Shown: positions 3,328-19,830 of the stretch, piece by piece
Layout: every line of letters begins with the position of its first letter
How positions within the stretch are numbered: the first letter of the stretch is position 1
DNA from: Candidatus Lokiarchaeum ossiferum
GTDB taxonomy: Archaea; Asgardarchaeota; Lokiarchaeia; Sigyniarchaeales; Promethearchaeaceae
Length of the DNA stretch: 32,000 nucleotides
Direction of reading: 5' to 3'
Assembly: GCA_025839675.1 (NCBI GenBank)
Contig: CP104013.1
Span: 3,150,001-3,182,000 of the forward strand
Notes under the pieces: model-generated
What the model saw: the letters and a program-made list of their open reading frames with translations, nothing else
Databases searched by the model: none
Told to the model about the DNA's origin: nothing
Made by a program: the position numbers and the translations under genes

Positions 3328-3348
3328 TTCCCCAGAAATACAAATCAT

Positions 3349-3871: not shown

Positions 3872-3948
3872 TAAAAGGAAAGAGAAATGGCGCAGGTGTC
3901 AGGGATCGAACCTGCGACCTGCCGATTAACAGCCGACCGCTCTACCGA
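3872..3948 (-). repeat. Partial tRNA-Asn copy (3' ~61 nt of the tRNA plus ~16 nt of 3' flank); putative distal att site
   Basis: aaaaggaaagagaaatggcgcaggtgtcagggatcgaacctgcgacctgccgattaacagccgaccgctctaccga matches 19738-19815 with 3 substitutions. It diverges abruptly at 3949, inside the D-loop. The 5' part of the tRNA (acceptor 5' strand and most of the D-arm) is absent, so this is not a functional tRNA. Confidence 0.8.
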
Positions 3949-4086
3949 AGATGTACCATATGCACTCAAATACATAATTCTTAACACCAAAATTCCTAGA
4001 AAATTGCTTGGCGTAAGATTTCGAGTATAATCCTTCTCTATGATAAAGTTTTAATTAATCAAAAACTCAAAAAAAAAAGAAAAAAA

Positions 4087-7000
4087 TTAAACAATTTCAA
4101 TCCAAAAAGCTTTTGTTCCATGATAATCTATGGTGAAAGTCTTAGCAAATAAGTCGGTGTCCGAAGGAATAAATGTCTCAAATTTTAAAGAAAATGATTC
4201 TCCTTCTTCAAATTTTAATTGAGATTCAAATTTAAGAGTTATCGGCCCAACAGGAATTGTGGTCCAAGCACCATAGTTTCGATTATACTCATGATCATTC
4301 ACCATTTCAATTTCCCAAGGATTATTTGGTAATAACTCCTCAGTTATACCGATTTGTTCACGTTGAGAGTAATATTGAGATCTGGGATCAAAAGTAATCC
4401 CTGGATAATCTGTATTGAATTCACCTAAGAATTTTCTGAAGCGAAGGATTTCTTTGCTAGGATCTTGCTCCAAAATAATCCTTTGATAAGCGTGAACAGA
4501 ATTGGCATCTTCGTATTTGTATCCTATTCCTTTAACGTTTCCCCAATATTCAATTCCAACTATCACATCTTCTTCAATATTAAGGATAGGATTTTTAACA
4601 GTGAATGAGACTTTTTCTAATTCCCCTAATTCAACATCAATACCTGCACCTCCTGTATCTTTAGATCCAATAGAAACACCGGCTTTTAGTTCAATTTTTT
4701 TTGTAGAAAAAGATGTTAAACCTGGTGTTATATCCCAATCCAAATTAATCCCATTTGGAGATGTTGGAATATAGATTCGATATTCTGGAATGACAATCTT
4801 TTCAGAAGATATCAAATCCACCGAATTTTCAACTGCCTTTCCAAGTTTTATGTTATCCATATAGACTTGGAAGGAAGCATCATTAGTATTACTTGTATAG
4901 ATTTCGAGTTCCGTTACATCCCACATTTCAGTGCTGGCACGAGGTTCATCAGCGATCTTCACACCATCAACCCAAGCTTGCCATTGATTATTATCCATAT
5001 CCATTAGTAAATCGATTTTATACATGCGATTTGATTCTGGCAAACAATAAATATCATCAGGACCAATATAACTGTTGCCATATACATCATTAGTGACCGA
5101 AAGAACGTTTTCTGGAAAATCACCATAAGTTTGGTGCAAACTTAATCTAATATAATCTTCGTAGGAAACAATATCATTATCTTTGAAAATGATTGTAAAA
5201 TCTGGAATGCCAGTGTATCCGATTTCAAATGTGAAAAGATATTTTCCATAATTATCCATTTCAATATCTTTACTAATTTTCACTTTTTTATTATTTAAAA
5301 TTCCTCCAGTACTGGAATCTACAAATTCTATAACCCTTCCATAATAATCAGTTATTGGAGAAATTATAACATTAACAGAACAATCTGTTCCTTCAGAAAT
5401 AGTATAACCAGAAGGATTTGTTCCAATACCTGCATTCTCATAATTATCCGTAACAGGGTATCCAGCATCCTTTGGATTAGAAAAATACAACTTGATCTCG
5501 TCATCATCAGTAAACCCATCACTATCAGTATCTTCTAATCCAGGATTCGTAGTAAGTTCATAATGCTCATATCCGTCATTATATGTATCACCATCAGAAT
5601 CTGGATTTGTAGGATTAAGGTTCACATAACCTTCATATTCATAGATGCCAGTAGCTTCAGAGCTTAAATCATCTCGTACAAAATCTAATTCTTGCTTATC
5701 AGTCAATCCATCAAAATCTGAATCAATTTCTGAGGGATTAGAATAATATGTTTTGTAGAATTTTGGTCGAGAATTTGGATCTGAATAAATTAAATCATAT
5801 CCAGTTACTTCTTCGCTATCAGTTAAACCATCTTCATCTTTATCTGCTAAAGCATTCAAAGGATTTGTATTGTATACTAAAACTTCATCTCCATCAGATA
5901 TACCATCATTATCTGAATCAGAATCACTTGGAGATAAATCATCTAACCTAGAATAATGAGCTTCATAGTTTCCATCCCATATATTAAACCAATTATAAGA
6001 ATATTCTTCATAATTGGACAAATCATCATTATCAGTATCCCTATCCACATTTGGAAGATGGAAATAGCTTCTGTATCCTTCAGAAGATACTCCTAACCCA
6101 TCAATTCCAAAATTCATAGCATCATATCCACTATGTGTGTACATCCCAAGCGAGTTGATGTAGGAATAAGAAAGAACTGGAATATCACTTCCCACTTTTT
6201 GACCATCAATCCAAGCATCAACTTGATTATTGCTGAAATCTAATTCAATGTGAACTTGATACCATTGATTCAATTGATAATCAAGAATTGGAATCCAAGT
6301 TCCTGTATCTCGTCTAATTCCAAGATGACCACCCCAGATTGGCATGTAAAATGGTTGTCCTGATCCGTGAAAAGTTAGATATGCATATCCATTTGATGAA
6401 GGCGATGGAGAATACCACCAGAAGTCAATAGAATCACCATCCTGACTCATAGTATTAAAACTGACAGAAGCGGTTGGACTTGTTGTTGGTGTGTTTCCTT
6501 GGGCAAGATATAATGCATTGGGATGATTTTCAATATTTTTAATTGTTGCAGTTGCTGTTCCAGGATTATAAGTCCACTCTTGCCAATTTGTGGTTCCAAT
6601 TATTTTGAAGCTTTCAATATCGGGATGATTTGAAAATGCTTCATACCCTTGGGAGGAAACTCCTAAACTATCAAATCCAAAATTCATTTTTTGTTCAGTA
6701 CCCTGTGTATACATGAAAATATTGTCAATTTCAGAATATGGAAGCACTGGAATATCTGATAGAGTTTTTATTCCATTTGCCCATAAATCCACTTCATTAT
6801 TTGTGAAGTCAAATTCAACGTGCATATGATACCAGGTTGACCATTCAAAATTGAAATATTCCCATGCACTTGTATCCTTTCTTATTCCAAAATGATTTGA
6901 CCATATTGGGAAGTAAAAGGGCCGTGAACTCCCATCTTGCAAGCAAATATATGCATAACCAATCGTATCGGAAGAAGGAGAATACCACCAAAAATCAATA

Positions 7001-8445
7001 TAATCATTATCTTGATTCACCGCAGGAAAAGACACAGCTACAGTTGGACTAGTTATTGAATTAACATGATCTTCTTGGGAAAGATAGAGAGAAGTCGGAT
7101 GATCTCCAATATTCGTAATAGTAGCAACTTCCGTCCCAGATTGAATATTAAAATCATTCCATTCAATACTATTTTCAACAAAGAAGCTATCAATCGTATA
7201 ATGATTATTATAAGCTATATACCCTTCAGAAGACACACCCAGAGCATCAAAGCCAAAATTGGTATCACCAAGATCACTGTGGATATACATATTGATGGAA
7301 TTAATGAAGGAGTAATCTAGGACTGAAACATCAACAAGTGATTTTTCCCCATCAACCCATAAATCCACTTCATTATTCGTAAAATCAAATTCAACATGCA
7401 CATGATACCACGTTGAATAATCAAAATTGAAGTAGTTACTCCAGCTTCCAGAACTATCGCGAATTCCAAAGTGATTAGCCCATATAGGAAAGTAGAAGGG
7501 TTGTCCTGTATCTTGTTTAAATGTAATATATGCGTACCCATCGGAACCAACTGAAGGCGAAAACCACCAAAAGTCAAGATAATCTTGATCGTCATTCAAT
7601 GTATTGAAATTAATGGATGCTGATGGATTAGTGGTTACTGGATCTTCTTGAGATAAATAGAGTGCATTATAGCGGCCATCAATATCAGTCAATACCGCTA
7701 ATTCTGAACCTTGAGATATACTCCAGCGGTTCCAATCGATGCACTCACTTTGATCATATCCTATCCCACTACCATCCATAGGATTTAGAGGATTTAAATT
7801 ATTGATATATTCCCATCCATCAGGCATTCCATCTTGATCTGTATCCATATTGTTGGGATCTGTTCCCAAAGTATTCGTTTCGAGCCAATCATTTAACCCA
7901 TCATTATCAGTATCATCAACAAGATAAACGTAAATCGACTCAATTCTTTTTCCTGTTAAGTAAAAGCATTCTTCCCCATCAGCATATTCGGGAGAATCAC
8001 CTAAGGATTGAATGTGTCCACGATATCGGATTTGATATTTATACTCAGGACAGTTTACTAGTCGAATTGCAAATTTTTCAATCTGTAGTGCCTGTCCTCT
8101 TGTTCCAGCATAATTTCCATCACTTATCCACTGTGTCCACCCATTTCCTTGAATATATACTTTGTATTCAATGTCACAATCAAATGTATTGTCTACAATA
8201 CTTAATTGAATCCCTTCTAATCTTTTTGCAATACCTTTATGACCAACCCATTGGTGGTCAGTTCCAACAATATCCCCATAGGATTGTTGATGAACCAAAA
8301 CGGATAAAATTTGGCTACTAACGTTTGGTACGTTCAACTCCCTTTGAGATTCTTCTTGATCCTCTGTAAATCCAAATTCTCCAGAATTGGATAGAGTTAG
8401 GCTAAGAAGAAGTAAAAATGCAATATATTTTTGTTGATTTTTCAT
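4087..8445 (-). CDS. Large secreted multi-domain surface protein (ChW-like repeats, TSP3-type Ca-binding repeats, 3-4 LamG/concanavalin-like domains)
   Basis: 1452-aa ORF with signal peptide MKNQQKYIAFLLLLSLTLSNSG. Residues 45-175 carry ChW-like units (YKVYIQGNGWTQWISDGNYAGTRGQALQIEKFAIRL). D-x-D-x-D-G acidic repeats occur at aa ~177-225 and ~800-1010 (DTDNDGLNDWLE, DTDQDGMPDGWE, DSDNDGISDGDE, DSDGDTYNDGYE). Three ~190-aa tandem domains follow, plus a fourth related domain (QWQAWVDGVKI...MDNIKLGK). Confidence 0.85.
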   Translation of the reverse strand: MKNQQKYIAFLLLLSLTLSNSGEFGFTEDQEESQRELNVPNVSSQILSVLVHQQSYGDIVGTDHQWVGHKGIAKRLEGIQLSIVDNTFDCDIEYKVYIQGNGWTQWISDGNYAGTRGQALQIEKFAIRLVNCPEYKYQIRYRGHIQSLGDSPEYADGEECFYLTGKRIESIYVYLVDDTDNDGLNDWLETNTLGTDPNNMDTDQDGMPDGWEYINNLNPLNPMDGSGIGYDQSECIDWNRWSISQGSELAVLTDIDGRYNALYLSQEDPVTTNPSASINFNTLNDDQDYLDFWWFSPSVGSDGYAYITFKQDTGQPFYFPIWANHFGIRDSSGSWSNYFNFDYSTWYHVHVEFDFTNNEVDLWVDGEKSLVDVSVLDYSFINSINMYIHSDLGDTNFGFDALGVSSEGYIAYNNHYTIDSFFVENSIEWNDFNIQSGTEVATITNIGDHPTSLYLSQEDHVNSITSPTVAVSFPAVNQDNDYIDFWWYSPSSDTIGYAYICLQDGSSRPFYFPIWSNHFGIRKDTSAWEYFNFEWSTWYHMHVEFDFTNNEVDLWANGIKTLSDIPVLPYSEIDNIFMYTQGTEQKMNFGFDSLGVSSQGYEAFSNHPDIESFKIIGTTNWQEWTYNPGTATATIKNIENHPNALYLAQGNTPTTSPTASVSFNTMSQDGDSIDFWWYSPSPSSNGYAYLTFHGSGQPFYMPIWGGHLGIRRDTGTWIPILDYQLNQWYQVHIELDFSNNQVDAWIDGQKVGSDIPVLSYSYINSLGMYTHSGYDAMNFGIDGLGVSSEGYRSYFHLPNVDRDTDNDDLSNYEEYSYNWFNIWDGNYEAHYSRLDDLSPSDSDSDNDGISDGDEVLVYNTNPLNALADKDEDGLTDSEEVTGYDLIYSDPNSRPKFYKTYYSNPSEIDSDFDGLTDKQELDFVRDDLSSEATGIYEYEGYVNLNPTNPDSDGDTYNDGYEHYELTTNPGLEDTDSDGFTDDDEIKLYFSNPKDAGYPVTDNYENAGIGTNPSGYTISEGTDCSVNVIISPITDYYGRVIEFVDSSTGGILNNKKVKISKDIEMDNYGKYLFTFEIGYTGIPDFTIIFKDNDIVSYEDYIRLSLHQTYGDFPENVLSVTNDVYGNSYIGPDDIYCLPESNRMYKIDLLMDMDNNQWQAWVDGVKIADEPRASTEMWDVTELEIYTSNTNDASFQVYMDNIKLGKAVENSVDLISSEKIVIPEYRIYIPTSPNGINLDWDITPGLTSFSTKKIELKAGVSIGSKDTGGAGIDVELGELEKVSFTVKNPILNIEEDVIVGIEYWGNVKGIGYKYEDANSVHAYQRIILEQDPSKEILRFRKFLGEFNTDYPGITFDPRSQYYSQREQIGITEELLPNNPWEIEMVNDHEYNRNYGAWTTIPVGPITLKFESQLKFEEGESFSLKFETFIPSDTDLFAKTFTIDYHGTKAFWIEIV
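6067..7737 (-). repeat. Three tandem ~190-aa (~575-nt) intragenic domain repeats inside the 1452-aa CDS
   Basis: The repeats are aa ~237-411, 427-603 and 619-793. They share W..W....G...A.I.NI..HP..LYL.Q......SP.A.VSF......D.IDFWW.SPS...GYAY......PFY.PIW..H.GIR......W.......W...H.E.DF.NN.VD.W..G.K...D.PVL.YS.I....MY......NFG.D.LGVSS.GY. Confidence 0.85.
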
Positions 8446-8914
8446 TTTATAACTTCCAGATCAAATTATTCTGACTTAAGACAAATTTTCCTCTAAACTA
8501 AAAATCACTAATTGTGTAAAACCCCTACCATATGAAAAAGTCGCACAAATTTTTCGGATCATGAGCTAAAATTACTCTCGAAAAAAGACTTTTTGATTTT
8601 TGGATCAAATTACTGATTTTTTTACTATCTGTCCAAATCTGAACATTACTAATATAGTTAAAGAGGTATTTAAACTGCACGTTGTTAGTAAAACGCTATG
8701 ATTTTTATTGAATAAATATTTAAAATAAACTTATTCCTATAATTCATTAATTACTTCAATTTTTTACCTTTTCAACAAATTTAAACTATTTATGTTACAA
8801 GTCATAATTCCACATTCAATTCCCTGTACTTGTAAAATAATTTAGTGTTCAAGCTTCCAATTCTAACTCAAACATTAAATTATGCTCGGATGATAGGACT
8901 TAACTTGAAAAAAA

Positions 8915-11134
8915 TTACTTTAACTTCAGTTTAATATTGTCAATTAATTTTTCTTTGATAAATCCCTCTTCTCGAATTAATCGAAAATATTGCCCTTCCT
9001 CAAATTTAAACCCAAATTGATCCCCACACTCCATGAAAACTTTGTGGCGCAATACCTTCCCAGGAAAATGTTTCCACTCTTCACCACTGGCAACTATTTC
9101 CTGTATTCGGTCTGAATATTTTGCAAACTGTTTGAGATAATACGGTTTATCTACAGATATATGACATTTTTCGCTGGTTAGTATATTCACAGTATTAAGA
9201 AAATTATCCAGCAATTCATTTTCCGATGTTGTACCACCCTTGATTCCCTCGATTATCGGTTTTATTAACTCTTTTTTTTCATCCTCCGAAAATACCTTTG
9301 GAAACTCCTCGAAAAAGAATTTCAACTTCTTTGTCATCTTCATTGTCTCATCGATAGAAGTTTTGATTAGATTAGACACCTTTTCAAGGGTAATCTCTTC
9401 CTCTGAATCTGGATTGGATCTTTCAATAAGTTCTTTGAGTAGCTCAGGATTGAGGTATAAATTTTCGATTTCCCGCACTGGGAGTAGTACAATTTTATCT
9501 CGGATTTCTTTTGCCTTCTTATTGCGAATTTCCTTATTACCTTCATCATTATCCAAAATAATGAGAAATTTGAAGTTTTTATTGGTAAAATTCTCTATCA
9601 ACTGTGCATTTGCCCAATAATGTAAATCTCGTTTGCCTCCTAACGGTTGTAGTATGATTCTTTGCTCTTCTAAAATTTCCGGAATTGCTTGTTTGAAAAA
9701 CTCTACATCATCCTTTCCTTCCACCAATATCATCCCATTATTCATGAGATAATCTGAAGGTTTGATGCCTAAATCTTCAAAAACTTGTGGTATATTTTCT
9801 GCTTTTTCATTATATACATGAGTTATTTTATCACTTCGTTTTACCCTATGAATGCTCCATCCCTTTTTCATACTATCCAAGAAATATGGTGAATGAGTAG
9901 TAATTAAAACTTGAAATCGGCTCAAATTTTCCTCGATTATTGATAGGAGTATTTTTTGCAAATCAGGATGTATAAAAAGTTCCGGTTCTTCAATTAACAG
10001 CAATCCATTTTCTTTTGTTTCTAATATTGCAACTAAAATTGTTACCAATTGCTGAATCCCCTTCCCCAATTTGTCAAAAGTAAGTTTGTACTCTAAATCT
10101 TCTTCTAATACATAAGGAATTGTCAAGGGATATTTCTCAATAGGAATGTTTGTTTCTGGGTAATAATCAATATTATAAAGAGAATAATCTGGTTGATGTA
10201 AAAAATTTTGATTGATCTCTTTAATATTAGGATACAATTTGCTCAGATAGTGGTTGAGTTTTTCTAATTTTTCTTTCTCATTTGTGTTATAGCTAAGAAT
10301 TTTTAGTGGGACATTTTCTCCATCATATTCAAAATGAAAAGGCTTTGTAGAAGCCTCCACCTTATAGAATGGTAGGAATGAACGATCTTCAACTACCATA
10401 TTCATCTTGGAATAGAAATCTATAATCGGTGATAAGAAAAAGTGCAATAAAGGATTGCTATGAACTCGTTTATCAAAAATGGATCTATTATTCAGAAGTT
10501 GATTGCCAGGATTCGGAAATCCAGTATTGAAAATCGAATTTGGAAAAAAATGCCATTCAAATGAATTACTATTAGCAATGAGTTTTTTCCTTGGTTTGCT
10601 AAGTTCCATGTTTCTAATAGAATATTCATGTCCTACTGAAGTCCTATCCACAAAATTATAGGAAATCAGTCCATTTTTGAAAGTAACTCTTCTAATAAAA
10701 ATTTCATAACTTGACCCAGGAGCTACTTCAAATTCATATACAATATTTTCAAATGCCTCCTCTAATAATATCGATTCCTCAGGGTTGAATCGATTATCTT
10801 TGAAAAATTTAAATAATTTTGGGTTTTTCAAGTAGTCTTTTGAATGTTCCCTAAATAGCCTTGATGCTTGATCACGAAAATATTCCAAAATCTTTGATCT
10901 ATCAAATTTGAATTCTAAATTTATCTTTACCGGATGCTTCTGGGAATTGAACTTAATCAATTTTTTATCTAAAAGCTTCCCCGACCTTATACTCTTTAAA
11001 ATTTTAAATAAATTGCTTTTCCCTGAATTATTAGGTCCAATTATAACGCCTAAATCCCCAATATTCTCGAATACTTGGTGATCGAAACTTAGCAGATTGA
11101 ATATTTCTATTCGATGCAACCGCGAAATTGTCAT
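8915..11134 (-). CDS. OLD-family / PARIS-like fused ABC-type ATPase plus Toprim (DUF4435-like) nuclease
   Basis: 739-aa ORF. Motifs: Walker A GPNNSGKSN; signature-like LGKGIQQL; Walker B LLLIEEPELFIHP; H-loop ITTHSP. The C-terminal Toprim has MILVEGKDDVEFF (catalytic Glu), ILDNDEG (DxD) and REIENLYLNP. Confidence 0.8.
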   Translation of the reverse strand: MTISRLHRIEIFNLLSFDHQVFENIGDLGVIIGPNNSGKSNLFKILKSIRSGKLLDKKLIKFNSQKHPVKINLEFKFDRSKILEYFRDQASRLFREHSKDYLKNPKLFKFFKDNRFNPEESILLEEAFENIVYEFEVAPGSSYEIFIRRVTFKNGLISYNFVDRTSVGHEYSIRNMELSKPRKKLIANSNSFEWHFFPNSIFNTGFPNPGNQLLNNRSIFDKRVHSNPLLHFFLSPIIDFYSKMNMVVEDRSFLPFYKVEASTKPFHFEYDGENVPLKILSYNTNEKEKLEKLNHYLSKLYPNIKEINQNFLHQPDYSLYNIDYYPETNIPIEKYPLTIPYVLEEDLEYKLTFDKLGKGIQQLVTILVAILETKENGLLLIEEPELFIHPDLQKILLSIIEENLSRFQVLITTHSPYFLDSMKKGWSIHRVKRSDKITHVYNEKAENIPQVFEDLGIKPSDYLMNNGMILVEGKDDVEFFKQAIPEILEEQRIILQPLGGKRDLHYWANAQLIENFTNKNFKFLIILDNDEGNKEIRNKKAKEIRDKIVLLPVREIENLYLNPELLKELIERSNPDSEEEITLEKVSNLIKTSIDETMKMTKKLKFFFEEFPKVFSEDEKKELIKPIIEGIKGGTTSENELLDNFLNTVNILTSEKCHISVDKPYYLKQFAKYSDRIQEIVASGEEWKHFPGKVLRHKVFMECGDQFGFKFEEGQYFRLIREEGFIKEKLIDNIKLKLK

Positions 11135-11234
11135 ATATTATTAGTTTTGGACAAAGGTGTAGTTAAATTTTTAGATTAAAACTCAATTTCCTTTAAACTT
11201 TGATAAGGAAAAAAAAAACACGTATATAATTAAA

Positions 11235-11540
11235 TCAATATCCATATTTTTGCATGATATCAGTAATATCTCTTCCATAGTATTTCACGTAGGCCACAAT
11301 TCGCCCATAGGTATCAATCGCCACTTGTTTAATGGTAACCAAAGATCCTACAGGTATTAAAGAGGATAATATTCTTTTTGCTTTGAAATAACCAGATTCT
11401 CCCTTTTCAGGTGTGTTAATATTAGCAATTCGAACATATTTATTACCCGTTATAATGAAAGTATCTCCATCTACAATCGCAGCTACTTTTTTTCGATATA
11501 TATTTGATGTTGGGTATTTCTTCGAAATTGAAGATGTCAT
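11235..11540 (-). CDS. Staphylococcal-nuclease-like (SNase/thermonuclease fold) protein, short form
   Basis: 101 aa. VAAIVDGDTFII...YVRIANINTPEKGE...AIDTYGRIVAYV matches the SNase pattern (V-DGDT, R-x-x-x-I-x-x-PE, D-x-YGR). The start ATG (11540-11538) overlaps the stop TGA (11539-11537) of the upstream gene as ATGA. Confidence 0.7.
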   Translation of the reverse strand: MTSSISKKYPTSNIYRKKVAAIVDGDTFIITGNKYVRIANINTPEKGESGYFKAKRILSSLIPVGSLVTIKQVAIDTYGRIVAYVKYYGRDITDIMQKYGY

Positions 11541-12169
11541 ATTTTATCACCTCCATCCAAACTCCTAAGATATGTTTTAAATTGATTTTCTGAAAGCGCA
11601 AAGCAGTTATTAGAATTGTGATACTTGTTAATATCTAGCAACCGCTCGTCAGTATAAAAGGAACCACTGCAAATGGCATAAAACTGCCCAGATTCATTTG
11701 ATTCCGAATTTTCAAACAAGCGAACAATATTTTGCATCCTACTTGATTGAGAACCTCCACTCCCATCTGAATGAAATCGAACAAAATAGGACCTCTTTCC
11801 TTTAATTTTACATGAAAGATGAATTGAACTTGATTTTACATTCAATCGCTTTTTTGTGATCTTTCCGTCTGTAATGTAGAGTCTTGGAGTTCTCCAATGA
11901 GTGATCAAATTTGAAATAAAAGTCTGGTTGGTCAGATATTTCGTAAATTCCCTCAGATAAGTATTTCCTCGCTTCAAATTTAGGTCCTTACTTACGCATA
12001 TTGCAGCGAATAATTTATCTTCAAGAAATTTCTGTTCTATATCCTTAATTGGAATTCCCGTACGGTCATGTAACCGGATAAGCTGTTTTACCTTATGGCC
12101 CTTCATAATTCTCTTCCGAATTATGGAGATTTGCGTGGTGACGTCCTTTCTAATCTGAAATTGGTACAT
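11537..12169 (-). CDS. Hypothetical protein, 210 aa, translationally coupled to the SNase-like gene
   Basis: Long ORF with non-repetitive composition and a 4-nt ATGA overlap with the downstream gene. No family was recognised. A D-x(n)-S-x-K arrangement (ITDGK...HLSCKIK) and the HSDGSGGSQSSR motif could suggest a restriction-endonuclease-like fold, but that is a guess. Confidence 0.55.
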   Translation of the reverse strand: MYQFQIRKDVTTQISIIRKRIMKGHKVKQLIRLHDRTGIPIKDIEQKFLEDKLFAAICVSKDLNLKRGNTYLREFTKYLTNQTFISNLITHWRTPRLYITDGKITKKRLNVKSSSIHLSCKIKGKRSYFVRFHSDGSGGSQSSRMQNIVRLFENSESNESGQFYAICSGSFYTDERLLDINKYHNSNNCFALSENQFKTYLRSLDGGDKI

Positions 12170-12462
12170 TAATTAATTACTTCCTTTACTGAGTGGTGGT
12201 TTGTGTGTGACAGAATCAATCCTTCGAGTAAGCTATTTGATCAATCTACGTTGACTTACGCGCGCGATCGTTACCCGTTACAATAACGAAGGTCACACGC
12301 GTATTTAAATCAAGGTATTTATAGAGAAGTACCCTTCCTCAACCGACAAAAATTCAAAAATTTCACTGTTGGATAGAAAAACACGCAAGAATTCCAATAT
12401 TTCATAATGTGAATATTTTTAATATTTCACTCGTACTGTTAATATTGTTAGTGAAAAAAAAA

Positions 12463-13281
12463 ATGAATTCCTTAGATTTAGTTGAAGAACGAAATATTTT
12501 AGTCGTTCCAATCGGTTTAGAAAATGAGCGGGTTGTTAAAAGCTGCCAAATTTACCCTGTGAACGTCATTTATCTCTTGAAGAGTAACTTTGAATCTAAT
12601 TCTGATCATAAGGAAAAAAACTCATCCCAATGGGGAATAGAACAATACTCAAAAACAATTGCATCTGAAGTCATTAAGAAATTTGAAAATACTTTTTTTG
12701 AAATTCAACCAAAAAATTGCCATCTCGGCTCCCTCCCGAGCACAATTTCTATTTTAAATGACATCTATGAAATTGAACAGAAAAAGGGAAAATTGAACAA
12801 AATTTACATCAATATCTCCACCGCATCCAAATTATTCGCAATTGGGGCCTATATTTTTGCCTCTCAATTCCCCGATATATGCAAACTTTTCTATTTGGCC
12901 ACAAATAATTATCTTCTCTTGGAACACTTGAAATCGGAAAAAGGGGATTTAGAAAAATTAAAAACGGAATTTAGAAAATTTGGTCTAACAAAAGGACCTT
13001 TCAAAGTTGTGAACATCCCAATTCTGAAATCGGACCCTTTTTCAACCGATGAAAAACGATTGATCAATTATTTAGCCCAATTTGACCACATCAATTCGAT
13101 AAAAGAAATATTGGAAAATCTCAAAAAGGATACCAACGCTAAAGAAAGAATGAATCTTCGCAGATCCCTTGAAAAACTCGAGAAAAACAATTTGCTGATA
13201 CTAAAAAAAAGTGGAAAATCGGTTCAGGTTCTTATATCTGATGAATTGAAACAGCTCGCTGGCTCCTTTATACTGGAGTAG
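12463..13281 (+). CDS. Putative Csa3/DUF6293-like (HFX_2341-type) regulator: Rossmann-like N-domain plus C-terminal winged HTH
   Basis: The N-terminus ILVVPIGLENERVV resembles the V-x-P-x-G-x-x-x-x-R start of Csa3/DUF6293 proteins. Also seen are IYINISTASKLFAIGAYIFAS and LFYLATNNY. The C-terminal part (DEKRLINYLAQ...RRSLEKLEKNNLLILKKSGKSVQV) looks wHTH. I prefer the ATG at 12463 over the GTG at 12409. Confidence 0.45.
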   Translation: MNSLDLVEERNILVVPIGLENERVVKSCQIYPVNVIYLLKSNFESNSDHKEKNSSQWGIEQYSKTIASEVIKKFENTFFEIQPKNCHLGSLPSTISILNDIYEIEQKKGKLNKIYINISTASKLFAIGAYIFASQFPDICKLFYLATNNYLLLEHLKSEKGDLEKLKTEFRKFGLTKGPFKVVNIPILKSDPFSTDEKRLINYLAQFDHINSIKEILENLKKDTNAKERMNLRRSLEKLEKNNLLILKKSGKSVQVLISDELKQLAGSFILE

Positions 13282-13320
13282 CTTATATTCCGCTGTAATT
13301 CTTATACGATTCATTCAATT

Positions 13321-14361
13321 TTAAAATAATATCGCAATCACAATCGCCAAAATGGACAGGACCAACTCAATGCGCCATTTCGAAGTTTCTTTCCTATATT
13401 TCCGTTTCTCCATTGCATTTTCAATTCCATCAATGAAATTCTTCAACTCTTCTACCACTTGATCTGGTTCTTGGTTCTGTTTCGAATTGAAATGATATAT
13501 ATACCATGTTTTAACCTTCCCAAAAATCGCTTTCCATTCGTGTAGCTTTTCCAGTGAAAATATTTCATCATGTAAATCAATCGATATTTCATTCAGCTCT
13601 TCCTTATCAAACCCGGTCCCATAATATAACTCAATCCATTTTCCATTATTTTGCTTGATTGTTTCAACTATCTCTTCGGAAGGTATCTTTTGTGTAAAAA
13701 TTTGTCGATATTCTTCAACAAGATCATTTTCTTTTTCATAAACCCTTAATAAGATAAGATTCTTCGCATTCTCCAAGTTATTAAAGCAAAAAGTGAAATA
13801 ATTCCTAAAAACTGCACAGATATTCACTAGTACGAATACTATAAGACTTATATAAACAAATAGTAGATAATGGTCTTGAGTTTTGATTACAGCATAGTAT
13901 CCAAAGGCTATAGTGCCTATACTGATAAAAATACTGAAAAGCGTTGAAAAAAAGAGAATATTATGATTCTTATCCTTCCTTAAAAAACTGGTTGAATATT
14001 TCAAAATCTGTATTTCCCTTTCTATTGTTTGTTTTGTATCCTTCGTATTCTTCTTGTCGAAATAATCTAAAAAATCTGAGAGAAATTCATAATTTTTTTC
14101 AGTATCCTCGACATTATATGGTAGTTCTTTCTTTGAAATCCAATAAGAAATTAAAATCCTAAGAAAAATTATAATGACGAATGTCCAAATTATTAATCCT
14201 TGCTCGTTTTCATCGAAAGATCCTAATATTAAGATCATGCAAAAAATAATTCCATTAATTATTCTGGTTCCTGGAATTTCTGACTTAAATGTGGAGACTT
14301 TTTCTTCATATTCCCCGAGAATTTTCAAAATATCATTTTTATTTATCTTTTTTTGATTCAT
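13321..14361 (-). CDS. Hypothetical multi-pass membrane protein (346 aa)
   Basis: Hydrophobic helices: IINGIIFCMILILGSF, LIIWTFVIIIFLRILISYWI, ILFFSTLFSIFISIGTIAFGYYAVI, LLFVYISLIVFVLVNICAVF, and a C-terminal ELVLSILAIVIAILF. A ~130-aa charged soluble segment lies between TM4 and the last TM. No family was recognised. Confidence 0.6.
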   Translation of the reverse strand: MNQKKINKNDILKILGEYEEKVSTFKSEIPGTRIINGIIFCMILILGSFDENEQGLIIWTFVIIIFLRILISYWISKKELPYNVEDTEKNYEFLSDFLDYFDKKNTKDTKQTIEREIQILKYSTSFLRKDKNHNILFFSTLFSIFISIGTIAFGYYAVIKTQDHYLLFVYISLIVFVLVNICAVFRNYFTFCFNNLENAKNLILLRVYEKENDLVEEYRQIFTQKIPSEEIVETIKQNNGKWIELYYGTGFDKEELNEISIDLHDEIFSLEKLHEWKAIFGKVKTWYIYHFNSKQNQEPDQVVEELKNFIDGIENAMEKRKYRKETSKWRIELVLSILAIVIAILF

Positions 14362-14857
14362 CTTATTAAATTAATTGGATTATTATGGATTTTAAGCCAT
14401 TTATTAGGACTTTAATACATTCCATCATTTCTCGATTTATATATGGATAATCAAATTTTTTGAAATCCATTAGAACCGAATGTGTGAGATTTTTTTTATT
14501 TTAAATGATTAAAATAGTTCTAATCAGTAATTTTAGAAAAAAGTCATGGAAACGACCAATTGACAATCAATCGCAAAGTAAATCAATCATGAATTTTAAG
14601 AAGAGGCTAAAAGCGCAAATGGAAGACTAATAGACTTATAATTAAATGATAACCAATTTTTTTTTTTATTTTCGATTATTAAATGATTCTACTTATTTTT
14701 TTTAATCAAGATGGAAAGCATGTGGGTGCACAATTTTTTAATCCAAATTTTTTTTTACAAATCTATAATTTTCATTAGTAAAATTGTGTCTATTAGTTTG
14801 ATTTGAAACATAGGACTGATTGATTTAAAATTTGATTCAAATACTTGGGTTTTTGAT

Positions 14858-15541
14858 ATGAAAAAAAAAATATTTGCATATTATCGGATTTCAACTGAGA
14901 AACAAAAAAAAAAGAATACTCAGGAAAATCAGAAAATTGCAATTTATAATTTTGTTGAAGGTTTAGACGTTGAAATTGTGAATGAATTTGAAGATTTGGG
15001 TATTTCAGGGGCAGATAATGACCGCCCACAATTCAATCTAATGCTTTCTAAATTGAATGAAGTAGAAGGATTAGTAATCTATGATTTAGACCGATTAACG
15101 AGAGATTTTGAAATGGGAGTAAACTTAATGTTTATGTTGAAAAATTCAAAAAAATCTTTGTATATTGCTCGAACCAAAGATATCAAAGATTTTTCAGATG
15201 ATTCCGAGCAATTAATGACCATTATCAAATCATGGGTTTCTGCACTTGAACGAAAGAAAATTAAAGAAAGACAAAAAATAGGAATTCAACGATATAAAGA
15301 AACAAAAGGTCGTTGGGGTAGAAAGAAATCCTTTGGAAAATATAAAAATCCAGAACAATTTTGGAAAAACTATGATATCTATAGAGATTTGGGTATTTCC
15401 AAGACATCCTGTGCAAAATTATTAGGTGTCTCTCGTTCAACGATGAATAGACGGATAGAAGAACGTGAAATAAATAAGTCGAAAATCAAAACTACCCCAA
15501 TTAATAACAAAATCAAAGAATGGAGCGAACCAAAACTTTAA
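14858..15541 (+). CDS. Small serine recombinase (resolvase/invertase type) with C-terminal HTH
   Basis: The N-terminus IFAYYRISTEKQ carries the Y-x-R-x-S-T-x-x-Q catalytic-Ser motif. Also present are VIYDLDRLTRD and a C-terminal HTH GISKTSCAKLLGVSRSTMNRRI. At 227 aa it is of resolvase/invertase size, not that of a large serine integrase. Confidence 0.85.
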   Translation: MKKKIFAYYRISTEKQKKKNTQENQKIAIYNFVEGLDVEIVNEFEDLGISGADNDRPQFNLMLSKLNEVEGLVIYDLDRLTRDFEMGVNLMFMLKNSKKSLYIARTKDIKDFSDDSEQLMTIIKSWVSALERKKIKERQKIGIQRYKETKGRWGRKKSFGKYKNPEQFWKNYDIYRDLGISKTSCAKLLGVSRSTMNRRIEEREINKSKIKTTPINNKIKEWSEPKL

Positions 15542-15688: not shown

Positions 15689-15731
15689 AAGCCCACCGGC
15701 CAAGGTGTTATAGAAGAAAGCCCACCGGCCA
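15689..15731. repeat. Two perfect 14-nt GC-rich direct repeats (aagcccaccggcca), 29 nt apart
   Basis: Copies lie at 15689-15702 and 15718-15731. The first sits in the loop of an aacacc/ggtgtt hairpin (15682-15709). The pair is ~150 nt downstream of the serine recombinase stop, in otherwise AT-rich spacer. Confidence 0.6.
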
Positions 15732-15808
15732 TCTCCATGTTATTAATCTTCAAGAAAGTATTTAAAGATCACCATACATGTTTTTTATAGGTTTATTTAA
15801 AATCAAAA

Positions 15809-16597
15809 ATGATTAGAATGATTATTGCATATCTTGACGAAACTGGAGATCCTGTCTATCGAAGGGGTGGCCCTAAATGGTTTGGTATAACTGCCGCAAT
15901 CTTTCATGATTCAAAATTACTTGATGGAATAAATGTGATGAAGTCATTCAATCAAAGTAAATCCGAAGAATATGACTGTGATTTTGAAATACATGCAAGG
16001 GAATTTTCCAGCTCGAAAAAAGAACCTTATAATGCAATGAAAGTTGAAGAAAAAATAGAATTATTTACAGAATGCTTACATACTGTCAAAAATACTGGTG
16101 CTTCAATTTGCGGTGTGTTTGTTGATAAAGTTAAGCATAGTTATTGGCATGGTAAATATGATTTTTTAAAAAATGTAGTTATGAACCTATTTGAAAGGAT
16201 AGGTAGATATCAGATTGCAAATTATCCTAATGAAGCCATTCTGATATTATATGACCAACCTTCTGCCCATTTAAGACCAATTATTAAACAATATTTCAAA
16301 GAAAGATTAGAAGTCGGTTCAAGATATGTCAAACCTGCGTTTTTCTTGAAAGAAATCTTATATGTTGAATCTAAATTTCATCAACCTATTCAAATAGCAG
16401 ATTTAACAGGATATATTGTAAGAAGATTGATAGAAAAACGTATAGATGGTACATTTTCCAGTTTTCTAAAGTATGTTGATGACTTGTATAAAATAATTCG
16501 ACCAATGTTAGATTTCAATCCAACAACAAAAGAAATATATGGGGCAGGAATTAAAATTATTGAAAGTAATGACAGGAAATATTATGGACGTTTCTGA
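15809..16597 (+). CDS. DUF3800-family protein
   Basis: 262 aa. The N-terminus IIAYLDETGD matches the DUF3800 (Y/I)-x-DE-(S/T)-G motif. Also seen are the mid FEIHAREF and the C-terminal ESKFHQPIQIADLTGYIV (the Q-x-AD-x motif typical of the family). Confidence 0.6.
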   Translation: MIRMIIAYLDETGDPVYRRGGPKWFGITAAIFHDSKLLDGINVMKSFNQSKSEEYDCDFEIHAREFSSSKKEPYNAMKVEEKIELFTECLHTVKNTGASICGVFVDKVKHSYWHGKYDFLKNVVMNLFERIGRYQIANYPNEAILILYDQPSAHLRPIIKQYFKERLEVGSRYVKPAFFLKEILYVESKFHQPIQIADLTGYIVRRLIEKRIDGTFSSFLKYVDDLYKIIRPMLDFNPTTKEIYGAGIKIIESNDRKYYGRF

Positions 16598-16633
16598 ACA
16601 GAGTGTTTGCTTAACCAAATATGAAAATACCTT

Positions 16634-16990
16634 TTATGGATCCAAAAATTTTCTTTTTCGGTTATTTGCCGTTATTTTCTTATAATTCTCAGTAGTTTCT
16701 CTTACGTTATCTATTCCAGTATCAATTAAGATTTGTTCAAATTTGCTACTTAAATTTTTGAATTTTATTGCATTATCAGCATAAGAATCAATATATTCAT
16801 CAGGTTTTTTTTCAGGTTCTTTATTAAGGAATTTTAATAAGGAATATGATTTTGCCCCATGTTCAGCAGACAATTGGGCTTTGTGGTCGAGTTCTTCATA
16901 TTTATCATAAGTAGCCGCAAAAATTGCATATAATTCAATTAAATCTAAAGGAATATTTAAAATTGGCATTTCATCTTCTTCAAAAGACAT
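16634..16990 (-). CDS. Hypothetical protein (118 aa, acidic/helical)
   Basis: It is the only long ORF in this interval and has non-repetitive composition. No family was recognised. Confidence 0.4.
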   Translation of the reverse strand: MSFEEDEMPILNIPLDLIELYAIFAATYDKYEELDHKAQLSAEHGAKSYSLLKFLNKEPEKKPDEYIDSYADNAIKFKNLSSKFEQILIDTGIDNVRETTENYKKITANNRKRKFLDP

Positions 16991-17035
16991 AATTGCATTA
17001 AAAAAATAACGGATAAAAAGTTTAGTTCTTTTTTT

Positions 17036-17128
17036 CGGTTCCGATTATCTGGTATACGGTTCCGAACCCTTTAGAAATAGTTAATTTGTCATCCTTCTTC
17101 AGAAAATATCTACTAATGTCGGTTCCGA
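17036..17128. repeat. Three copies of CGGTTCCGA (contains the palindrome GGTTC-C-GAACC), iteron-like
   Basis: Copies lie at 17036-17044, 17057-17065 and 17120-17128, so the starts are spaced 21 and 63 nt apart. A degenerate gggaccga follows at 17148. Confidence 0.7.
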
Positions 17129-17157
17129 ATTGATTTTGCTAATAAATGGGACCGAAA

Positions 17158-17184
17158 TTAGCGAGATTAGCGAGATTAGCGAGT
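17158..17184. repeat. Perfect 3x tandem 9-nt repeat (attagcgag)
   Basis: attagcgag attagcgag attagcgag is read directly at 17158-17184. It is followed by the hairpin ggtgat-ttc-atcacc (17199-17213) and the palindrome cacgtg (17215-17220). Confidence 0.9.
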
Positions 17185-17664
17185 ATTTCAGACAATAAGG
17201 TGATTTCATCACCCCACGTGATATTTTTTCTTGGATTGATTCTAAGAATCGCAAATATGGACAGAAAATAGAAAAAACCCCTATTGGGTGATATGTTCAG
17301 TTTTCAAGCAAATCCCTTCCGCCGCGACACTTTCCTTTTTATCCTAAAAATCGAGAAGAGCTTAATTCTATTAACAAGAATTTAATTTCGAGCGTAAAGT
17401 CTGTTTAAATTCCTCAAATTTTTCGGTTACTCATTTTTTGCCAATTATTTCTCTTTTATTTAAAAAATAAACTTGATTGCTCAATTTATTATGCCATTTT
17501 AGAATAAGTATAAATGATATTTATATCTACATATAAACTGAATTTATACATATCTATATATTATGTTTATTATTGAATGAAATTGGATAATTATATAAGA
17601 CTTAATTTAATTATAATATATTAGAGACGATTAATTTTTCTGACTCTTTTCTAGGTGAATATAA

Positions 17665-17799
17665 ATGTTAAAAAAAGAAAAAAAATTGCAAAGAAAGAAG
17701 CTCAGTGCATTTAAAAATATTAAAGAACTTCTAAAACGAATACTAGCTTATATCGTGTTAAAAAAACTGATTTCCATAATAGAATTGGTTTTGCTTTAA
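17665..17799 (+). CDS. Possible small basic protein (44 aa); speculative
   Basis: The ATG is preceded by aggtga with 8-nt spacing (ctaggtgaatataaATG). It encodes MLKKEKKLQRKKLSAFKNIKELLKRILAYIVLKKLISIIELVLL. A T19 run starts 14 nt after the stop. It is below the ORF-track length cut-off and has no homology support. Confidence 0.2.
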   Translation: MLKKEKKLQRKKLSAFKNIKELLKRILAYIVLKKLISIIELVLL

Positions 17800-17813
17800 A
17801 CCATTTGTGTGAG

Positions 17814-17832
17814 TTTTTTTTTTTTTTTTTTT
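17814..17832 (+). terminator. T19 homopolymer; possible archaeal oligo-T terminator
   Basis: An uninterrupted run of 19 T on the plus strand, right after the motif tgtgtgag. Archaeal RNAP terminates at oligo-T tracts (established knowledge). Function here is inferred. Confidence 0.3.
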
Positions 17833-18171
17833 AATAATTTTTTCTAAATTTTTATTTCTGTCTTAAAAAATTAAAGTGAATTGCTACATTATTGGCTATA
17901 CCAGTGTTTTATCATAAGAATCCACTATGTCGACTCAATCATATCCTAATTTTCCTAAAATTTGACCCAAAAGCATTTTATCAAATCTAAAGTATTTCAA
18001 AATGATTATGCTATTCATATTGACCAAAATCAAATCCCCTTCAGTTTTATAATCGAGCTTGAATTTGATAATCAATATATGACACATGTTGGATAATCTG
18101 AGATTTGAACAAATTTGTAGTTACATATTGCTTGTGATTAATGATTGTTGGGACCAAGTAACTTTTACAAT

Positions 18172-18215
18172 AGAAAGAGGAAATGGCACAGGTGACATGG
18201 ACCTAACTCGCTGAT
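18172..18215 (-). repeat. Degenerate remnant of the tRNA-Asn 3' end plus flank (third att-like copy)
   Basis: agaaagaggaaatggcacaggtgaca (18172-18197) matches agaaagagaaatggcgcaggtgaca at 19744-19768, with one inserted g in the flank and one substitution. Similarity fades over the next ~20 nt (tggacctaactcgctga versus gggatcgaacctgcgac). Confidence 0.6.
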
Positions 18216-18337
18216 TACACTATATCTATACGTAGACGTTTCATTTTCAAAAATAATTTGTAGGACGAATCCATCATTTCATGCATTGACTCCCTTAATC
18301 AAAACTATAAATACACATCCTAACAATTACCTATTAG

Positions 18338-18868
18338 GTGTTTGAAATTCCGAAAGATGATCTCAATCAAGAAAAAGTCGACTACTTAAAAACCGTCTTC
18401 TCCCACAATCGCAGTATGATCCAACTTGCAGACAACAAAGCCAGCATTTTAATCCGAATTATTGTAGTTATCCTCCCAATTATTTTTGGAATCGATTCCT
18501 ACTTAACTACAATTACTCTCCATAATAGCCTAAAAACCTTTCAATATGTTAGCTTTATCATTTGTATGGTTACCTTCATCATTTCATTCTTCTTATCGAC
18601 AGGTGTTCTAATGGCTCGATTTGCTGAATATGATGATCATATCTTCTTTTCAAATATTGAAAAAGATTCCCTTGAAGATTATCAAAATATTATTGAAGAA
18701 ATGGATGATTATGTCATTTTTGAAGATTATATCAAAGAAAATTATGCAATTGCCAAAATCAATAAAAAAAAGTATCAATGCTACAATATTTCCTTTTGGT
18801 TCCTTAATGCTGCGGTACTTTTATTGGTAATTCGATATATCTTATTGTTTACTTACCTTTTTTATTAA
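18338..18868 (+). CDS. Pycsar-effector-like small transmembrane protein (DUF5706/PycTM-type)
   Basis: 176 aa. The N-terminus ...HNRSMIQLADNKASILIRIIVVILPIIFG fits the x-x-AD-x-KA lead-in followed by a TM helix, as in DUF5706. Further TMs are FQYVSFIICMVTFIISFFLSTGVLM and WFLNAAVLLLVIRYILLF. The GTG start has a TATA-like actataaata (18304-18313) ~28 nt upstream, compatible with a leaderless mRNA. Confidence 0.55.
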   Translation: MFEIPKDDLNQEKVDYLKTVFSHNRSMIQLADNKASILIRIIVVILPIIFGIDSYLTTITLHNSLKTFQYVSFIICMVTFIISFFLSTGVLMARFAEYDDHIFFSNIEKDSLEDYQNIIEEMDDYVIFEDYIKENYAIAKINKKKYQCYNISFWFLNAAVLLLVIRYILLFTYLFY

Positions 18869-18890
18869 ATCTCAATTAAATTTTCTTTTT

Positions 18891-19604
18891 TTATGTCTCT
18901 CTCCCACTATACGCAAATATCTTGTAATTTTTCAATTCTTGAAAATTTGACTTCATTTTCCGAAAATATGAACAACAATAAAACGGAGGTTCAATTTCCT
19001 CACAATTATCTTTCTTTTCCTTGGATAGTTGAAAGAAAACATCGTACCCAATGCAAATCGTGATTTTTTCTTTAAAAGAAGCATGCTTTTTTCCAATGGA
19101 TTCTAATCTCTTCGCTGCTATTGCCGGTTGTCCAACTATTATCAGTTGAGATTTATTTTTAATACCTATACGTTCGACTTTTATTGTCCCAAAATCAATC
19201 CCAACTCGAATTTTTATCTCTGGAAACTTCTTTTTATCTATAAAATAAACGAGTAATTGAGAGATATATATAGCCGTTTTTAATGCTTGATCACATGCCC
19301 ACTTACCATTTTGATCAGATGAGCAAAAACTAATCATTGCCCCATCTCCTGTATATTTGTCAACAACTCCACCATTCTGACTTACTTCATTAAATACCAT
19401 ATGTAAAACTGGACTAATATATTTAATAAATTCAATCTCTGAGTATTTTGATGAGTTTGCAATATCAAATACCATAATAGAGGCATTTAAGGTTCGAACC
19501 TCTCCAATCGCTATTTCATCATCATTAGGAAACTTATTGATATTCTTCTTTCCTGGATTTTTTTTCTTATTTATAAAACTATTGAGCAACTGTACATCAA
19601 CCAA
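18891..19604 (-). CDS. Class III nucleotidyl cyclase domain protein (PycC-like candidate)
   Basis: 237 aa. Metal-binding motif 1 is IMVFDIANSSKY (h-h-F-x-D-h-x-x-S/F-T type). Motif 2 is DKYTGDGAMISF (K-x-x-GD-G/A-x-h-x-x-F). Also present is IRVGIDFGTIKVERIG...IVGQPAIAAKRLES (h-R-h-G-h-x-x-G ... G-x-x-h-N-x-A-x-R-h-E type). The TTG start is preceded by gaggag 8 nt upstream. Confidence 0.75.
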   Translation of the reverse strand: MVDVQLLNSFINKKKNPGKKNINKFPNDDEIAIGEVRTLNASIMVFDIANSSKYSEIEFIKYISPVLHMVFNEVSQNGGVVDKYTGDGAMISFCSSDQNGKWACDQALKTAIYISQLLVYFIDKKKFPEIKIRVGIDFGTIKVERIGIKNKSQLIIVGQPAIAAKRLESIGKKHASFKEKITICIGYDVFFQLSKEKKDNCEEIEPPFYCCSYFRKMKSNFQELKNYKIFAYSGRET

Positions 19605-19754
19605 ATCAGAATCTCCTCAGTATAGTTATTCGCTTGCATTTGGAAGTTGAGAATAGAATCACCATGAATTATTGATTAGACAAAGTTGTTGTTAAATGTT
19701 ATGTTTGGATAAAAAATAATTCTGAATGATTGGATATGGCAAAAGAAAGAGAAA

Positions 19755-19830
19755 TGGCGCAGGTGACAGGGATCGAACCTGCGACCTGCCGGTTAACAGC
19801 CGACCGCTCTACCGACTAAGCTACACCTGC
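19755..19830 (-). tRNA. tRNA-Asn (anticodon GUU), CCA encoded
   Basis: The reverse complement folds by hand as GCAGGTG TA GCTT AGTCGGTA GAGC G GTCGG CTGTTAA CCGGC AGGTC GCAGG TTCGATC CCTGT CACCTGC G CCA. All four stems pair and the anticodon loop CT-GTT-AA is canonical. Confidence 0.95.

Follow-up and report, generated by a model that had tools for sequence, protein, structure and literature searches.

A defence-rich 15.9-kb island between tRNA-Asn-derived repeats in Candidatus Lokiarchaeum ossiferum B35 and its empty site in strain B36

How did nearly 16 kb of DNA come to separate an intact tRNA-Asn gene from a second copy of its own 3' part in the chromosome of Candidatus Lokiarchaeum ossiferum strain B35, and did this DNA arrive as one block or in successive steps? 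The question is raised by a stretch of 32,000 nucleotides (contig CP104013.1 of assembly GCA_025839675.1, positions 3,150,001 to 3,182,000 of the forward strand; hereafter the window, to which all the positions given below refer unless another locus is named), in which a first-pass annotation had described one intact tRNA-Asn(GUU) gene and two decayed copies of it, and had proposed that mobile elements were integrated there serially. Few Asgard archaea have been brought into culture, and Ca. L. ossiferum is among them. That tRNA genes harbour integrated mobile elements or defence operons has long been established in bacteria and archaea, and this kind of element is well known; no published description of the tRNA-Asn island of B35 was found in the literature searched. 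In the light of the data presented below, the segment 3949-19815 (15,867 bp including one copy of the repeat) is probably a genomic island of B35 formed when a circular element underwent Campbell-type, site-specific recombination with the 3' part of the tRNA-Asn gene.

The tRNA-Asn gene was identified by ARAGORN, which reported it as Asn(GTT) and as the sole tRNA in the window, and by Rfam (RF00005, 68.7 bits), at the very place and on the strand given in the first-pass annotation. The outer copy (copy 1) forms a direct repeat with it, in the same orientation and with three substitutions, as previously described, but its size had to be corrected: it had been reported as 77 nt (3872-3948) with 16 nt of 3' flank, whereas the exact in-register repeat is 75 nt long with 14 nt of flank, and 72 of these 75 positions are identical at an offset of 15,867 nt. 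The repeat runs from tRNA position 16 to the CCA (61 nt) and continues into 14 nt of T-rich 3' flank TTTCTCTTTCTTTT. A 25-mer taken from the T-arm and acceptor stem occurs twice in the 32-kb window when up to three mismatches are allowed, and not at all in 100 shuffles; apart from the two repeat copies, no further copy of this 25-mer is present in the window, and no copy of the repeat was found in the other B35 and B36 loci examined.

Evidence on the nature of this segment is provided by Ca. L. ossiferum strain B36 (CP163304), which shows an average nucleotide identity (ANI) of 97.2% to B35 (10.64898/2026.02.13.705702). The product of the PfkB kinase gene at 781-1749 has an identical counterpart encoded on B36 CP163304.1. 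At the corresponding B36 locus, the first two of the three BLASTN blocks listed in the Table overlap exactly over the 75-nt repeat. A single intact tRNA-Asn gene is present there: this gene and its upstream flank are identical to the intact gene of B35, its 3' flank runs on as the sequence which in B35 lies beyond copy 1, and the flanks are about 97% identical to those of B35. The DNA which B35 carries in addition amounts to 15,867 bp bounded by the 75-nt repeat, and given this empty site with its boundaries at the repeat, it can therefore be taken with good probability to be a Campbell-type (site-specific, tRNA-restoring) insertion. The proposal that integration took place at the 3' end of the tRNA-Asn gene, between tRNA-derived direct repeats, is thus borne out by the repeats and by B36, which joins ~19.8 kb directly to ~3.9 kb, in line with the junction between ~3.8 kb and ~19.8 kb that had been anticipated for a related genome. 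The Logan contigs assembled from SRR22273277 and related runs are 100% identical to the window.

Table. Positions of the features described in the window and of the blocks aligned with strain B36
Feature	Window position	Strand	Evidence
Block shared with B36 (L001 7800-11749), 97.7% identity	3948-1		BLASTN
Block shared with B36 (L001 7421-7874), 96.3% identity	20194-19741		BLASTN
Block shared with B36 (L001 7039-7214), 94.9% identity	32000-31825		BLASTN
Intact tRNA-Asn(GUU), CCA encoded; putative attL side of the island	19755-19830	-	ARAGORN, Rfam; same sequence as the tRNA at the B36 empty site
Proximal copy of the 75-nt repeat (tRNA position 16 to CCA plus 14-nt T-rich flank)	19741-19815	-	In-register comparison, alignments
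Distal copy of the 75-nt repeat (copy 1), putative attR side; B36-shared chromosomal flank beyond	3874-3948	-	Alignments; B36 BLASTN
Island-side arm beside copy 1, weak in-register similarity (28/52) to tRNA 5' part/promoter region	3949-4000	-	Comparison with null
Copy 2, decayed whole tRNA-Asn gene with promoter 12-mer and ~30-nt internal deletion; read as a putative internal att relic	18168-18252	-	Alignments, repeat family
Secreted/surface protein, 1452 aa; ChW, TSP3 and CBM-like repeats	4087-8445	-	Pfam
ABC/OLD-type ATPase fused to DUF4435 (TOPRIM), 739 aa	8915-11134	-	Pfam AAA_21, AAA_15, DUF4435
Two overlapping open reading frames upstream of the AriAB-like gene: 210-aa protein and 101-aa SNase-domain nuclease	11235-12169	-	Pfam SNase 6.6e-6
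HFX_2341_N/CARF-like protein, 290 aa	12409-13281	+	Pfam PF19810 1.7e-15; PADLOC CARF3 models to 2.7e-14
346-aa protein, multi-pass membrane by eye from sequence	13321-14361	-	No family match
Small serine recombinase, resolvase/invertase type, 227 aa, C-terminal helix-turn-helix, plus 61 nt conserved upstream	14797-15541 (gene 14858-15541)	+	Pfam Resolvase 3.3e-28
Variable cargo between resolvase and site block: DUF3800 (262 aa, +), 118-aa open reading frame (-)	15809-16990		Pfam DUF3800
Conserved non-coding block, read as a putative res-like site cluster	17030-17325	+	Alignment to B36 resolvase locus
Non-coding stretch, 1.2 kb	16991-18167		
Pycsar effector PycTM, 176 aa	18338-18868	+	Pfam PycTM; PADLOC PycTM 6.4e-22
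Pycsar cyclase PycC, 237 aa, convergent with PycTM	18891-19604	-	Pfam Guanylate_cyc; PADLOC PycC 5.8e-20

An element targeting a tRNA gene must supply the 3' end of the tRNA together with its flank if the tRNA is to be kept working (Williams 2002, cited in PMC8813620), and the 75-nt repeat, which includes the tRNA 3' end and an oligo-T flank, matches what such an element must supply. The attP site of the circular element would have borne 75 nt copied from the tRNA (D-loop to CCA) and from its T-rich terminator. Integration would have rebuilt a functional tRNA gene, now forming attL (19741-19830), and the displaced chromosomal 3' part would persist at 3874-3948 (attR) as a repeat devoid of function. 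As judged from other elements that target tRNA genes, the enzyme responsible may have been a tyrosine integrase, the gene of which would have been lost subsequently or would never have been present on the island element, and the island would have arrived as one block. Because the integrase gene is no longer in the island, the latter would now be fixed, and could move only if an integrase were provided in trans or if the 75-nt repeats underwent homologous recombination with each other. Copy 1 differs from the tRNA at 3 of 75 positions, which is comparable to the 2 differences in 67 positions between B35 and B36 in the adjacent intergenic DNA, and this similarity in the degree of divergence suggests that the insertion is not very recent. 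On the chromosomal side, the distal repeat is adjoined by a GNAT acetyltransferase gene (3349-3806, minus strand), the B36 version of which is intact (152 aa), while that of B35 has a deletion of 1 nt and clustered substitutions and is reduced to an open reading frame (ORF) of 88 aa; the B35 gene beside the island boundary is probably a pseudogene.

Several points weigh against this interpretation. The parent element has left no gene by which it might be identified, as no integrase, excisionase or replication gene was found. Neither IMG/VR nor any of 185,579 GTDB species genomes contained a match to the 59-nt and 25-nt tRNA patterns by which a related element with the same attP would be revealed, and no free or circular form was detected among the Logan contigs carrying the end genes of the island, which show the integrated context or short fragments only. 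The GC content of the island (0.25-0.36) hardly differs from that of the flanks, so that base composition does not independently point to a foreign source. No outgroup was found either: a PfkB-based scan of JGI metagenomes yielded relatives with at best 45% full-length identity, which have no tRNA nearby and are not syntenic. The difference between the strains may therefore reflect a gain in B35 after their divergence or a loss from B36, by precise excision or by recombination between the repeats. Lastly, gene conversion could have held copy 1 similar to the tRNA gene, which would weaken the argument from age against a series of insertions in situ.

The question of whether the island was built in one step or several also concerns the inner copy (copy 2), which the first-pass annotation had described as a shorter and more degenerate copy of the 3' half, at 18172-18215. 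Its derivation from the tRNA was confirmed (local alignment score 48, against a null maximum of 27), but it proved to be a whole decayed gene and not a 3' half. The 3' part is identical to the tRNA at 34 of 40 positions, and its end coincides with that of the outer repeat (+14/15); the region from the D-arm to the start of the T-arm is missing owing to a deletion of about 30 nt; and the 5' part of the tRNA (acceptor/D region) is preserved, as is TTTTGAAAATGA, a 12-mer that exactly matches the promoter region upstream of the tRNA. When a long gap is allowed, the alignment score rises to 68 (null maximum 32), and p = 0.004 is obtained with the 5' part alone. With identities of 85% in the 3' part and 70% in the 5' part, copy 2 is some 15-30% diverged, as compared with 4% in the case of the outer copy. 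Since it is only 70-85% identical to the tRNA and has undergone a 30-nt deletion, whereas copy 1 is 96% identical, copy 2 appears to be older than the present insertion. It is most likely the relic of an older att junction, or of a tRNA gene borne by the element, that was already inside the element before the present insertion; a second in-situ insertion is thus not its most likely origin, and it would be a relic within a composite island which arrived, or last moved, as one block.

A second defence locus of B35 also bears on this point. This locus (L100; Logan SRR22273277 contig_1, 4718-13299) encodes, in this order, GajA-GajB (Gabija), PycC, PycTM, two small ORFs, a 740-aa AriAB-like protein and an SLFN/AlbA_2 protein. 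Its products share 61% (PycC), 75% (PycTM) and 54% (the 740-aa AriAB-like protein) amino acid identity with those of the island; its pycC and pycTM genes are convergent, and the Pycsar pair and the AriAB-like gene show the same order and orientation as in the island. The two small ORFs were read as encoding membrane proteins. No tRNA or tRNA relic was detected in 19 kb of L100. The Pycsar pair and the ATPase, which the first-pass annotation had assigned to separate elements, are therefore linked independently of the inner relic, since they occur together in L100 without any such relic. L100 is probably the Pycsar/Gabija cluster named in the B36 preprint (10.64898/2026.02.13.705702).

The serial scheme originally proposed, in which a 14.2-kb element entered the tRNA-Asn gene and a 1.5-kb Pycsar element then entered the rebuilt tRNA, leaving two nested att relics, has to be weighed against these findings. 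The three tRNA-derived copies are all in the same orientation, and the 3' limit of copy 2 coincides with that of the outer repeat, as would be the case at an att junction; tandem accretion at a single att site is moreover well known in bacteria. A series of this kind would nevertheless require the inner copy to be the younger one, while the order of decay recorded here is the reverse. The clean empty site in B36, at an ANI of 97%, would mean that both events were recent or that both segments departed jointly and precisely. A 1.5-kb segment containing pycC and pycTM alone cannot be an autonomous element, copy 2 contains a tRNA 5' half and a promoter that are not expected of a simple attR, and the Pycsar and AriAB-like genes are found in the same order in L100, where there is no tRNA relic. 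Two successive insertions in situ are therefore unlikely, and retain some credit only in view of gene conversion, which could have prevented copy 1 from diverging.

The island-side boundary of copy 1 gives some indications about the origin of the attP site. The first-pass annotation had stated that this copy ends abruptly at 3949. Past 3948, the identity to the tRNA does fall sharply, from 96% to about 54%, yet it does not reach the background level: in the adjacent arm, 28 of 52 in-register bases match the 5' part of the tRNA and the region upstream of it, as compared with a null expectation of 14 +/- 3.2, and a value of 28 is reached at 5 of about 64,000 positions, the self-match and the arm itself included. 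The fact that this arm (3949-4000) faintly resembles the whole gene suggests that the attP of the element descends from a complete tRNA-Asn gene, in which identity was kept only where the tRNA must be restored.

No tyrosine or large serine recombinase was identified by Pfam among the ORFs of at least 80 aa or by PHROGs, and no remnant of an integrase emerged when the four largest intergenic gaps were translated in six frames and compared with Pfam at E values up to 1. A tblastn search was likewise negative for tyrosine integrases, the query being the tyrosine recombinase located beside a 50%-identical resolvase on an environmental contig (L108). The statement that the island contains no tyrosine integrase, and only a small resolvase, therefore holds across the four approaches. 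The distance between the repeat and the nearest gene is 139 nt (3949-4087) on the side of the surface-protein gene and 150 nt (19605-19754) on that of pycC. A split integrase of the SSV type, with Int(N) and Int(C) halves at the att copies, had been envisaged, and was ruled out because these 139 nt and 150 nt of non-coding DNA are all that separates the repeats from unrelated genes, which leaves no room for such fragments at either end.

The small serine recombinase matches the Mpi invertase of NCBIfam and a DNA invertase of the PHROGs. An element of the serine-integrase type was ruled out, as the recombinase measures 227 aa (and not more than 400 aa) and the repeat is 75 nt long (and not a short core). 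The resolvase is unlikely to be the integrase of the tRNA-Asn site, because it is a 227-aa protein of the resolvase/invertase type, and because a repeat of 75 nt is not the kind of trace that serine recombinases leave. One of its relatives is encoded on a 41-kb contig rich in small ORFs, which is viral or plasmid-like by its gene content, and another on a 5.2-kb contig that also encodes a protein with a weak Pfam Phage_integrase match and one matching Pfam MTBMA_p00010_2nd; judging from these neighbours, the relatives of the resolvase appear to sit on mobile-element-like contigs.

Although it carries no integrase gene, the island might still be mobile if a tyrosine integrase from a resident provirus or plasmid acted in trans on the 75-nt att sites. 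We regard this as improbable; if true, a trans-mobile island would be an archaeal counterpart of cis-mobilizable or satellite-like defence islands.

It is more doubtful still that no integrase was ever involved, and that a plasmid-like circle carrying a diverged tRNA-Asn gene was inserted in the Campbell fashion by the homologous recombination machinery of the host, acting within the 75-nt stretch. Such an origin would be consistent with the failure to find an integrase or a remnant of one, with the similarity that both relics show, in their arms on the island side, to an entire tRNA gene with its promoter region, and with the resolvase and its res-like site cluster, which suggest plasmid ancestry. 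The abrupt change from 96% to about 54% identity at tRNA position 16, and the equally abrupt end at +14, nevertheless have the usual look of an attP identity block; in addition, 75 nt is short for a substrate of homologous recombination, and no replication gene was identified. That the copies should result from local duplication and decay of the tRNA locus, or be dispersed tRNA-derived repeats in an ordinary variable part of the chromosome, is hardly credible: both relics resemble the promoter region as well as the tRNA, but the boundaries of the B36 empty site lie exactly at the repeat, which largely refutes this idea, and no other copy was found in the window, in the other loci examined, in the 185,579 species genomes or in IMG/VR.

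Insertion of a circular element at the tRNA-Asn gene remains the preferred explanation, and in this respect the island resembles known tRNA-targeting integrative elements (Williams 2002; archaeal elements of the pNOB8/SSV type): its two boundaries are marked by an intact tRNA and by a direct repeat of the 3' part of that tRNA with its terminator, a sister strain has a precise empty site, and the cargo consists of accessory and defence genes. It differs from them in that no integrase gene, integrase remnant or excisionase was found, and in the faint similarity of its island-side arms to the whole tRNA gene and promoter. Other points of comparison come from Streptococcus, where cis-mobilizable elements (CIMEs) and accretion arrays at the att sites of integrative and conjugative elements are flanked by att sites and have no recombination module. 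The island is similar to CIMEs in its att-type flanking repeats, in the fact that no integrase was found, and in its internal att-like relic, which suggests a composite build-up; by analogy, it might in principle be moved by an integrase in trans. Its host, unlike theirs, is an archaeon, and no cognate partner element bearing an integrase was identified.

Among the Asgard archaea, aloposons, HeimV1 and CRISPR-Cas operons are integrated at tRNA genes in Heimdallarchaeum (PMC8813620). The B35 island similarly consists of a strain-variable block at a tRNA gene of an Asgard chromosome, with defence cargo, but it occurs in the class Lokiarchaeia, at a different tRNA, and has no viral integrase. Aloposons contain tandem giant genes (3,000-6,000 aa) and a ParA-like operon, and their tRNA integration lies downstream of the giant genes (PMC8813620), whereas the island carries one gene for a 1452-aa protein, and the 1818-aa and 858-aa genes of the neighbouring 5' block are not inserted in the tRNA. 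Like bacterial defence islands, with their clusters of PARIS, Pycsar and Gabija, the B35 island is strain-specific and groups at least two putative systems of recognised kinds, and a paralogous cluster bearing Gabija is present elsewhere in B35. Unlike in the bacterial islands, pycC and pycTM are convergent, and PARIS would be represented by a single fused AriAB-like protein with an adjacent SNase.

The cargo had been described as almost entirely defensive or accessory, and the Pfam and PADLOC assignments agree with this description: based on its predicted products, the island appears to be a mosaic consisting chiefly of antiviral-defence genes (those for a Pycsar pair, nucleases, a CARF-like protein and a fused, PARIS-like AriAB), and it also contains a plasmid-type resolvase gene with the res-like site cluster and the gene of a large surface protein. 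The best PADLOC model for the 739-aa ATPase is the fused PARIS AriAB (3.5e-28), and the AriA, Old, GajA and HEC-01A models also match; in the PDB, it matches AriA, OLD and Eco8, the match to AriA (1e-8) covering 64 residues only. A Pycsar system can be recognised from the sequence in the form of a PycC cyclase with an adjacent effector. The two genes are convergent and not co-directional, and this layout is kept in the paralogous module of L100. Bacterial Pycsar operons are usually co-directional, and the convergent arrangement may be a lineage-specific feature. The 210-aa protein gave no match in Pfam, PADLOC, PHROGs or the PDB, and the 346-aa protein none in Pfam, PADLOC, NCBIfam or PHROGs. 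The gene of the 1452-aa surface protein contains three in-frame internal repeats of about 570 nt (6173-7637).

The resolvase belongs to a module which is also found outside the island. Identity to a B36 locus situated at a different site amounts to 86-87% both for the resolvase gene, including the 61 nt preceding it, and for a non-coding block some 290 nt long. The conserved parts correspond to positions 14797-15541 and 17030-17325 of the window, to 9940-10667 and 11783-12089 of the B36 locus (L014), and to 1145-1759 and ~3300-3350 of an ENA contig (L015). The B35 block contains three TCGGTTCCGA sites (17035, 17056 and 17119) together with 3.4 copies of CGAGATTAG. Over some 175 nt it is, as judged by eye on the alignment, close to 95% identical to the B36 resolvase locus. 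The three CGGTTCCGA-type sites show a conserved spacing of 21-22 and 63 nt. The genes located between the conserved parts differ: B35 has DUF3800 and a 118-aa ORF, B36 a gene for a 330-aa protein, and the ENA contig a leucine-rich repeat (LRR) gene. The locus has the appearance of a res-like site adjoining a slot for variable cargo. The resolvase and the sites are kept in B35, B36 and the environmental contig with a different gene between them each time, and the resolvase and its cluster of three CGGTTCCGA subsites might constitute a serine-recombinase cassette-exchange module. Neither the resolvase protein nor the conserved non-coding block had any match in IMG/VR. Two other interpretations were considered: the site block as a structured RNA was rejected (fold z-scores of -0.28 and +0.78, and no Rfam match), and the module as an invertible segment was not supported, as no inverted repeat is common to the B35 and B36 copies. 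The B35 Logan contig breaks within the site block (position 17279), which hints at further copies.

Between the res-like cluster and the inner tRNA relic, the DNA is very AT-rich (GC ~0.27 in the 17-18 kb bin). At 17430-17660 and 17814-17832, it contains 2.7 copies of a 23-nt tandem repeat and a run of 19 T, and no ORF or family match was found there. Positions 18020-18042 match the small-ORF repeats at ~29.3 and ~30.7 kb over 23 nt; this was taken to be due to chance, as no similarity was observed at the protein level.

A second strain-specific block of 11.6 kb (20195-31824) occurs on the 5' side of the tRNA gene, where B36 has an unrelated spacer of about 206 bp (L001 7215-7420). This block encodes an LRR protein, a 1818-aa protein, an 858-aa HerA/FtsK-like ATPase, ribbon-helix-helix (RHH) and other small ORFs, and a flavodoxin/4Fe-4S protein, and its GC content rises to 0.40-0.44, as against ~0.33 elsewhere. 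No flanking repeats of 10 nt or more were found at its edges, and no integrase was found in it. The 1818-aa protein has no Pfam match; the region encoding its N-terminus contains an in-frame tandem array of 24-nt repeats (26335-26538), corresponding to 8-aa acidic units of the EE(K/R)DEKVE type. A small module composed of an RHH-type ORF (48 and 54 aa, with weak RHH_3 matches) and a small ORF is duplicated (29205-29717 and 30353-30842); the DNA repeat of the small ORF (29337-29426 versus 30749-30838) shows 76% identity over 90 nt, and the second copy of this ORF looks degraded. Because of this second block, the tRNA-Asn gene and its neighbourhood can be said to be a variable hotspot.

The two strains have been reported to differ strikingly in their defence repertoires, B35 having Pycsar systems which B36 lacks (10.64898/2026.02.13.705702). 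No account of the origin of this difference or of the tRNA-Asn island was found in the main text and two supplementary files of this preprint, and these files give no coordinates for the B35 defence genes. The island provides a concrete mechanism for part of the difference, since one of the two Pycsar systems of B35 and a PARIS-like system are carried on the same 15.9 kb. Its value is local: it accounts for part of the defence difference between two strains and defines an att site in a cultured lokiarchaeon, and the 75-nt att sequence could be tried as a landing site for genetic tools in Lokiarchaea.

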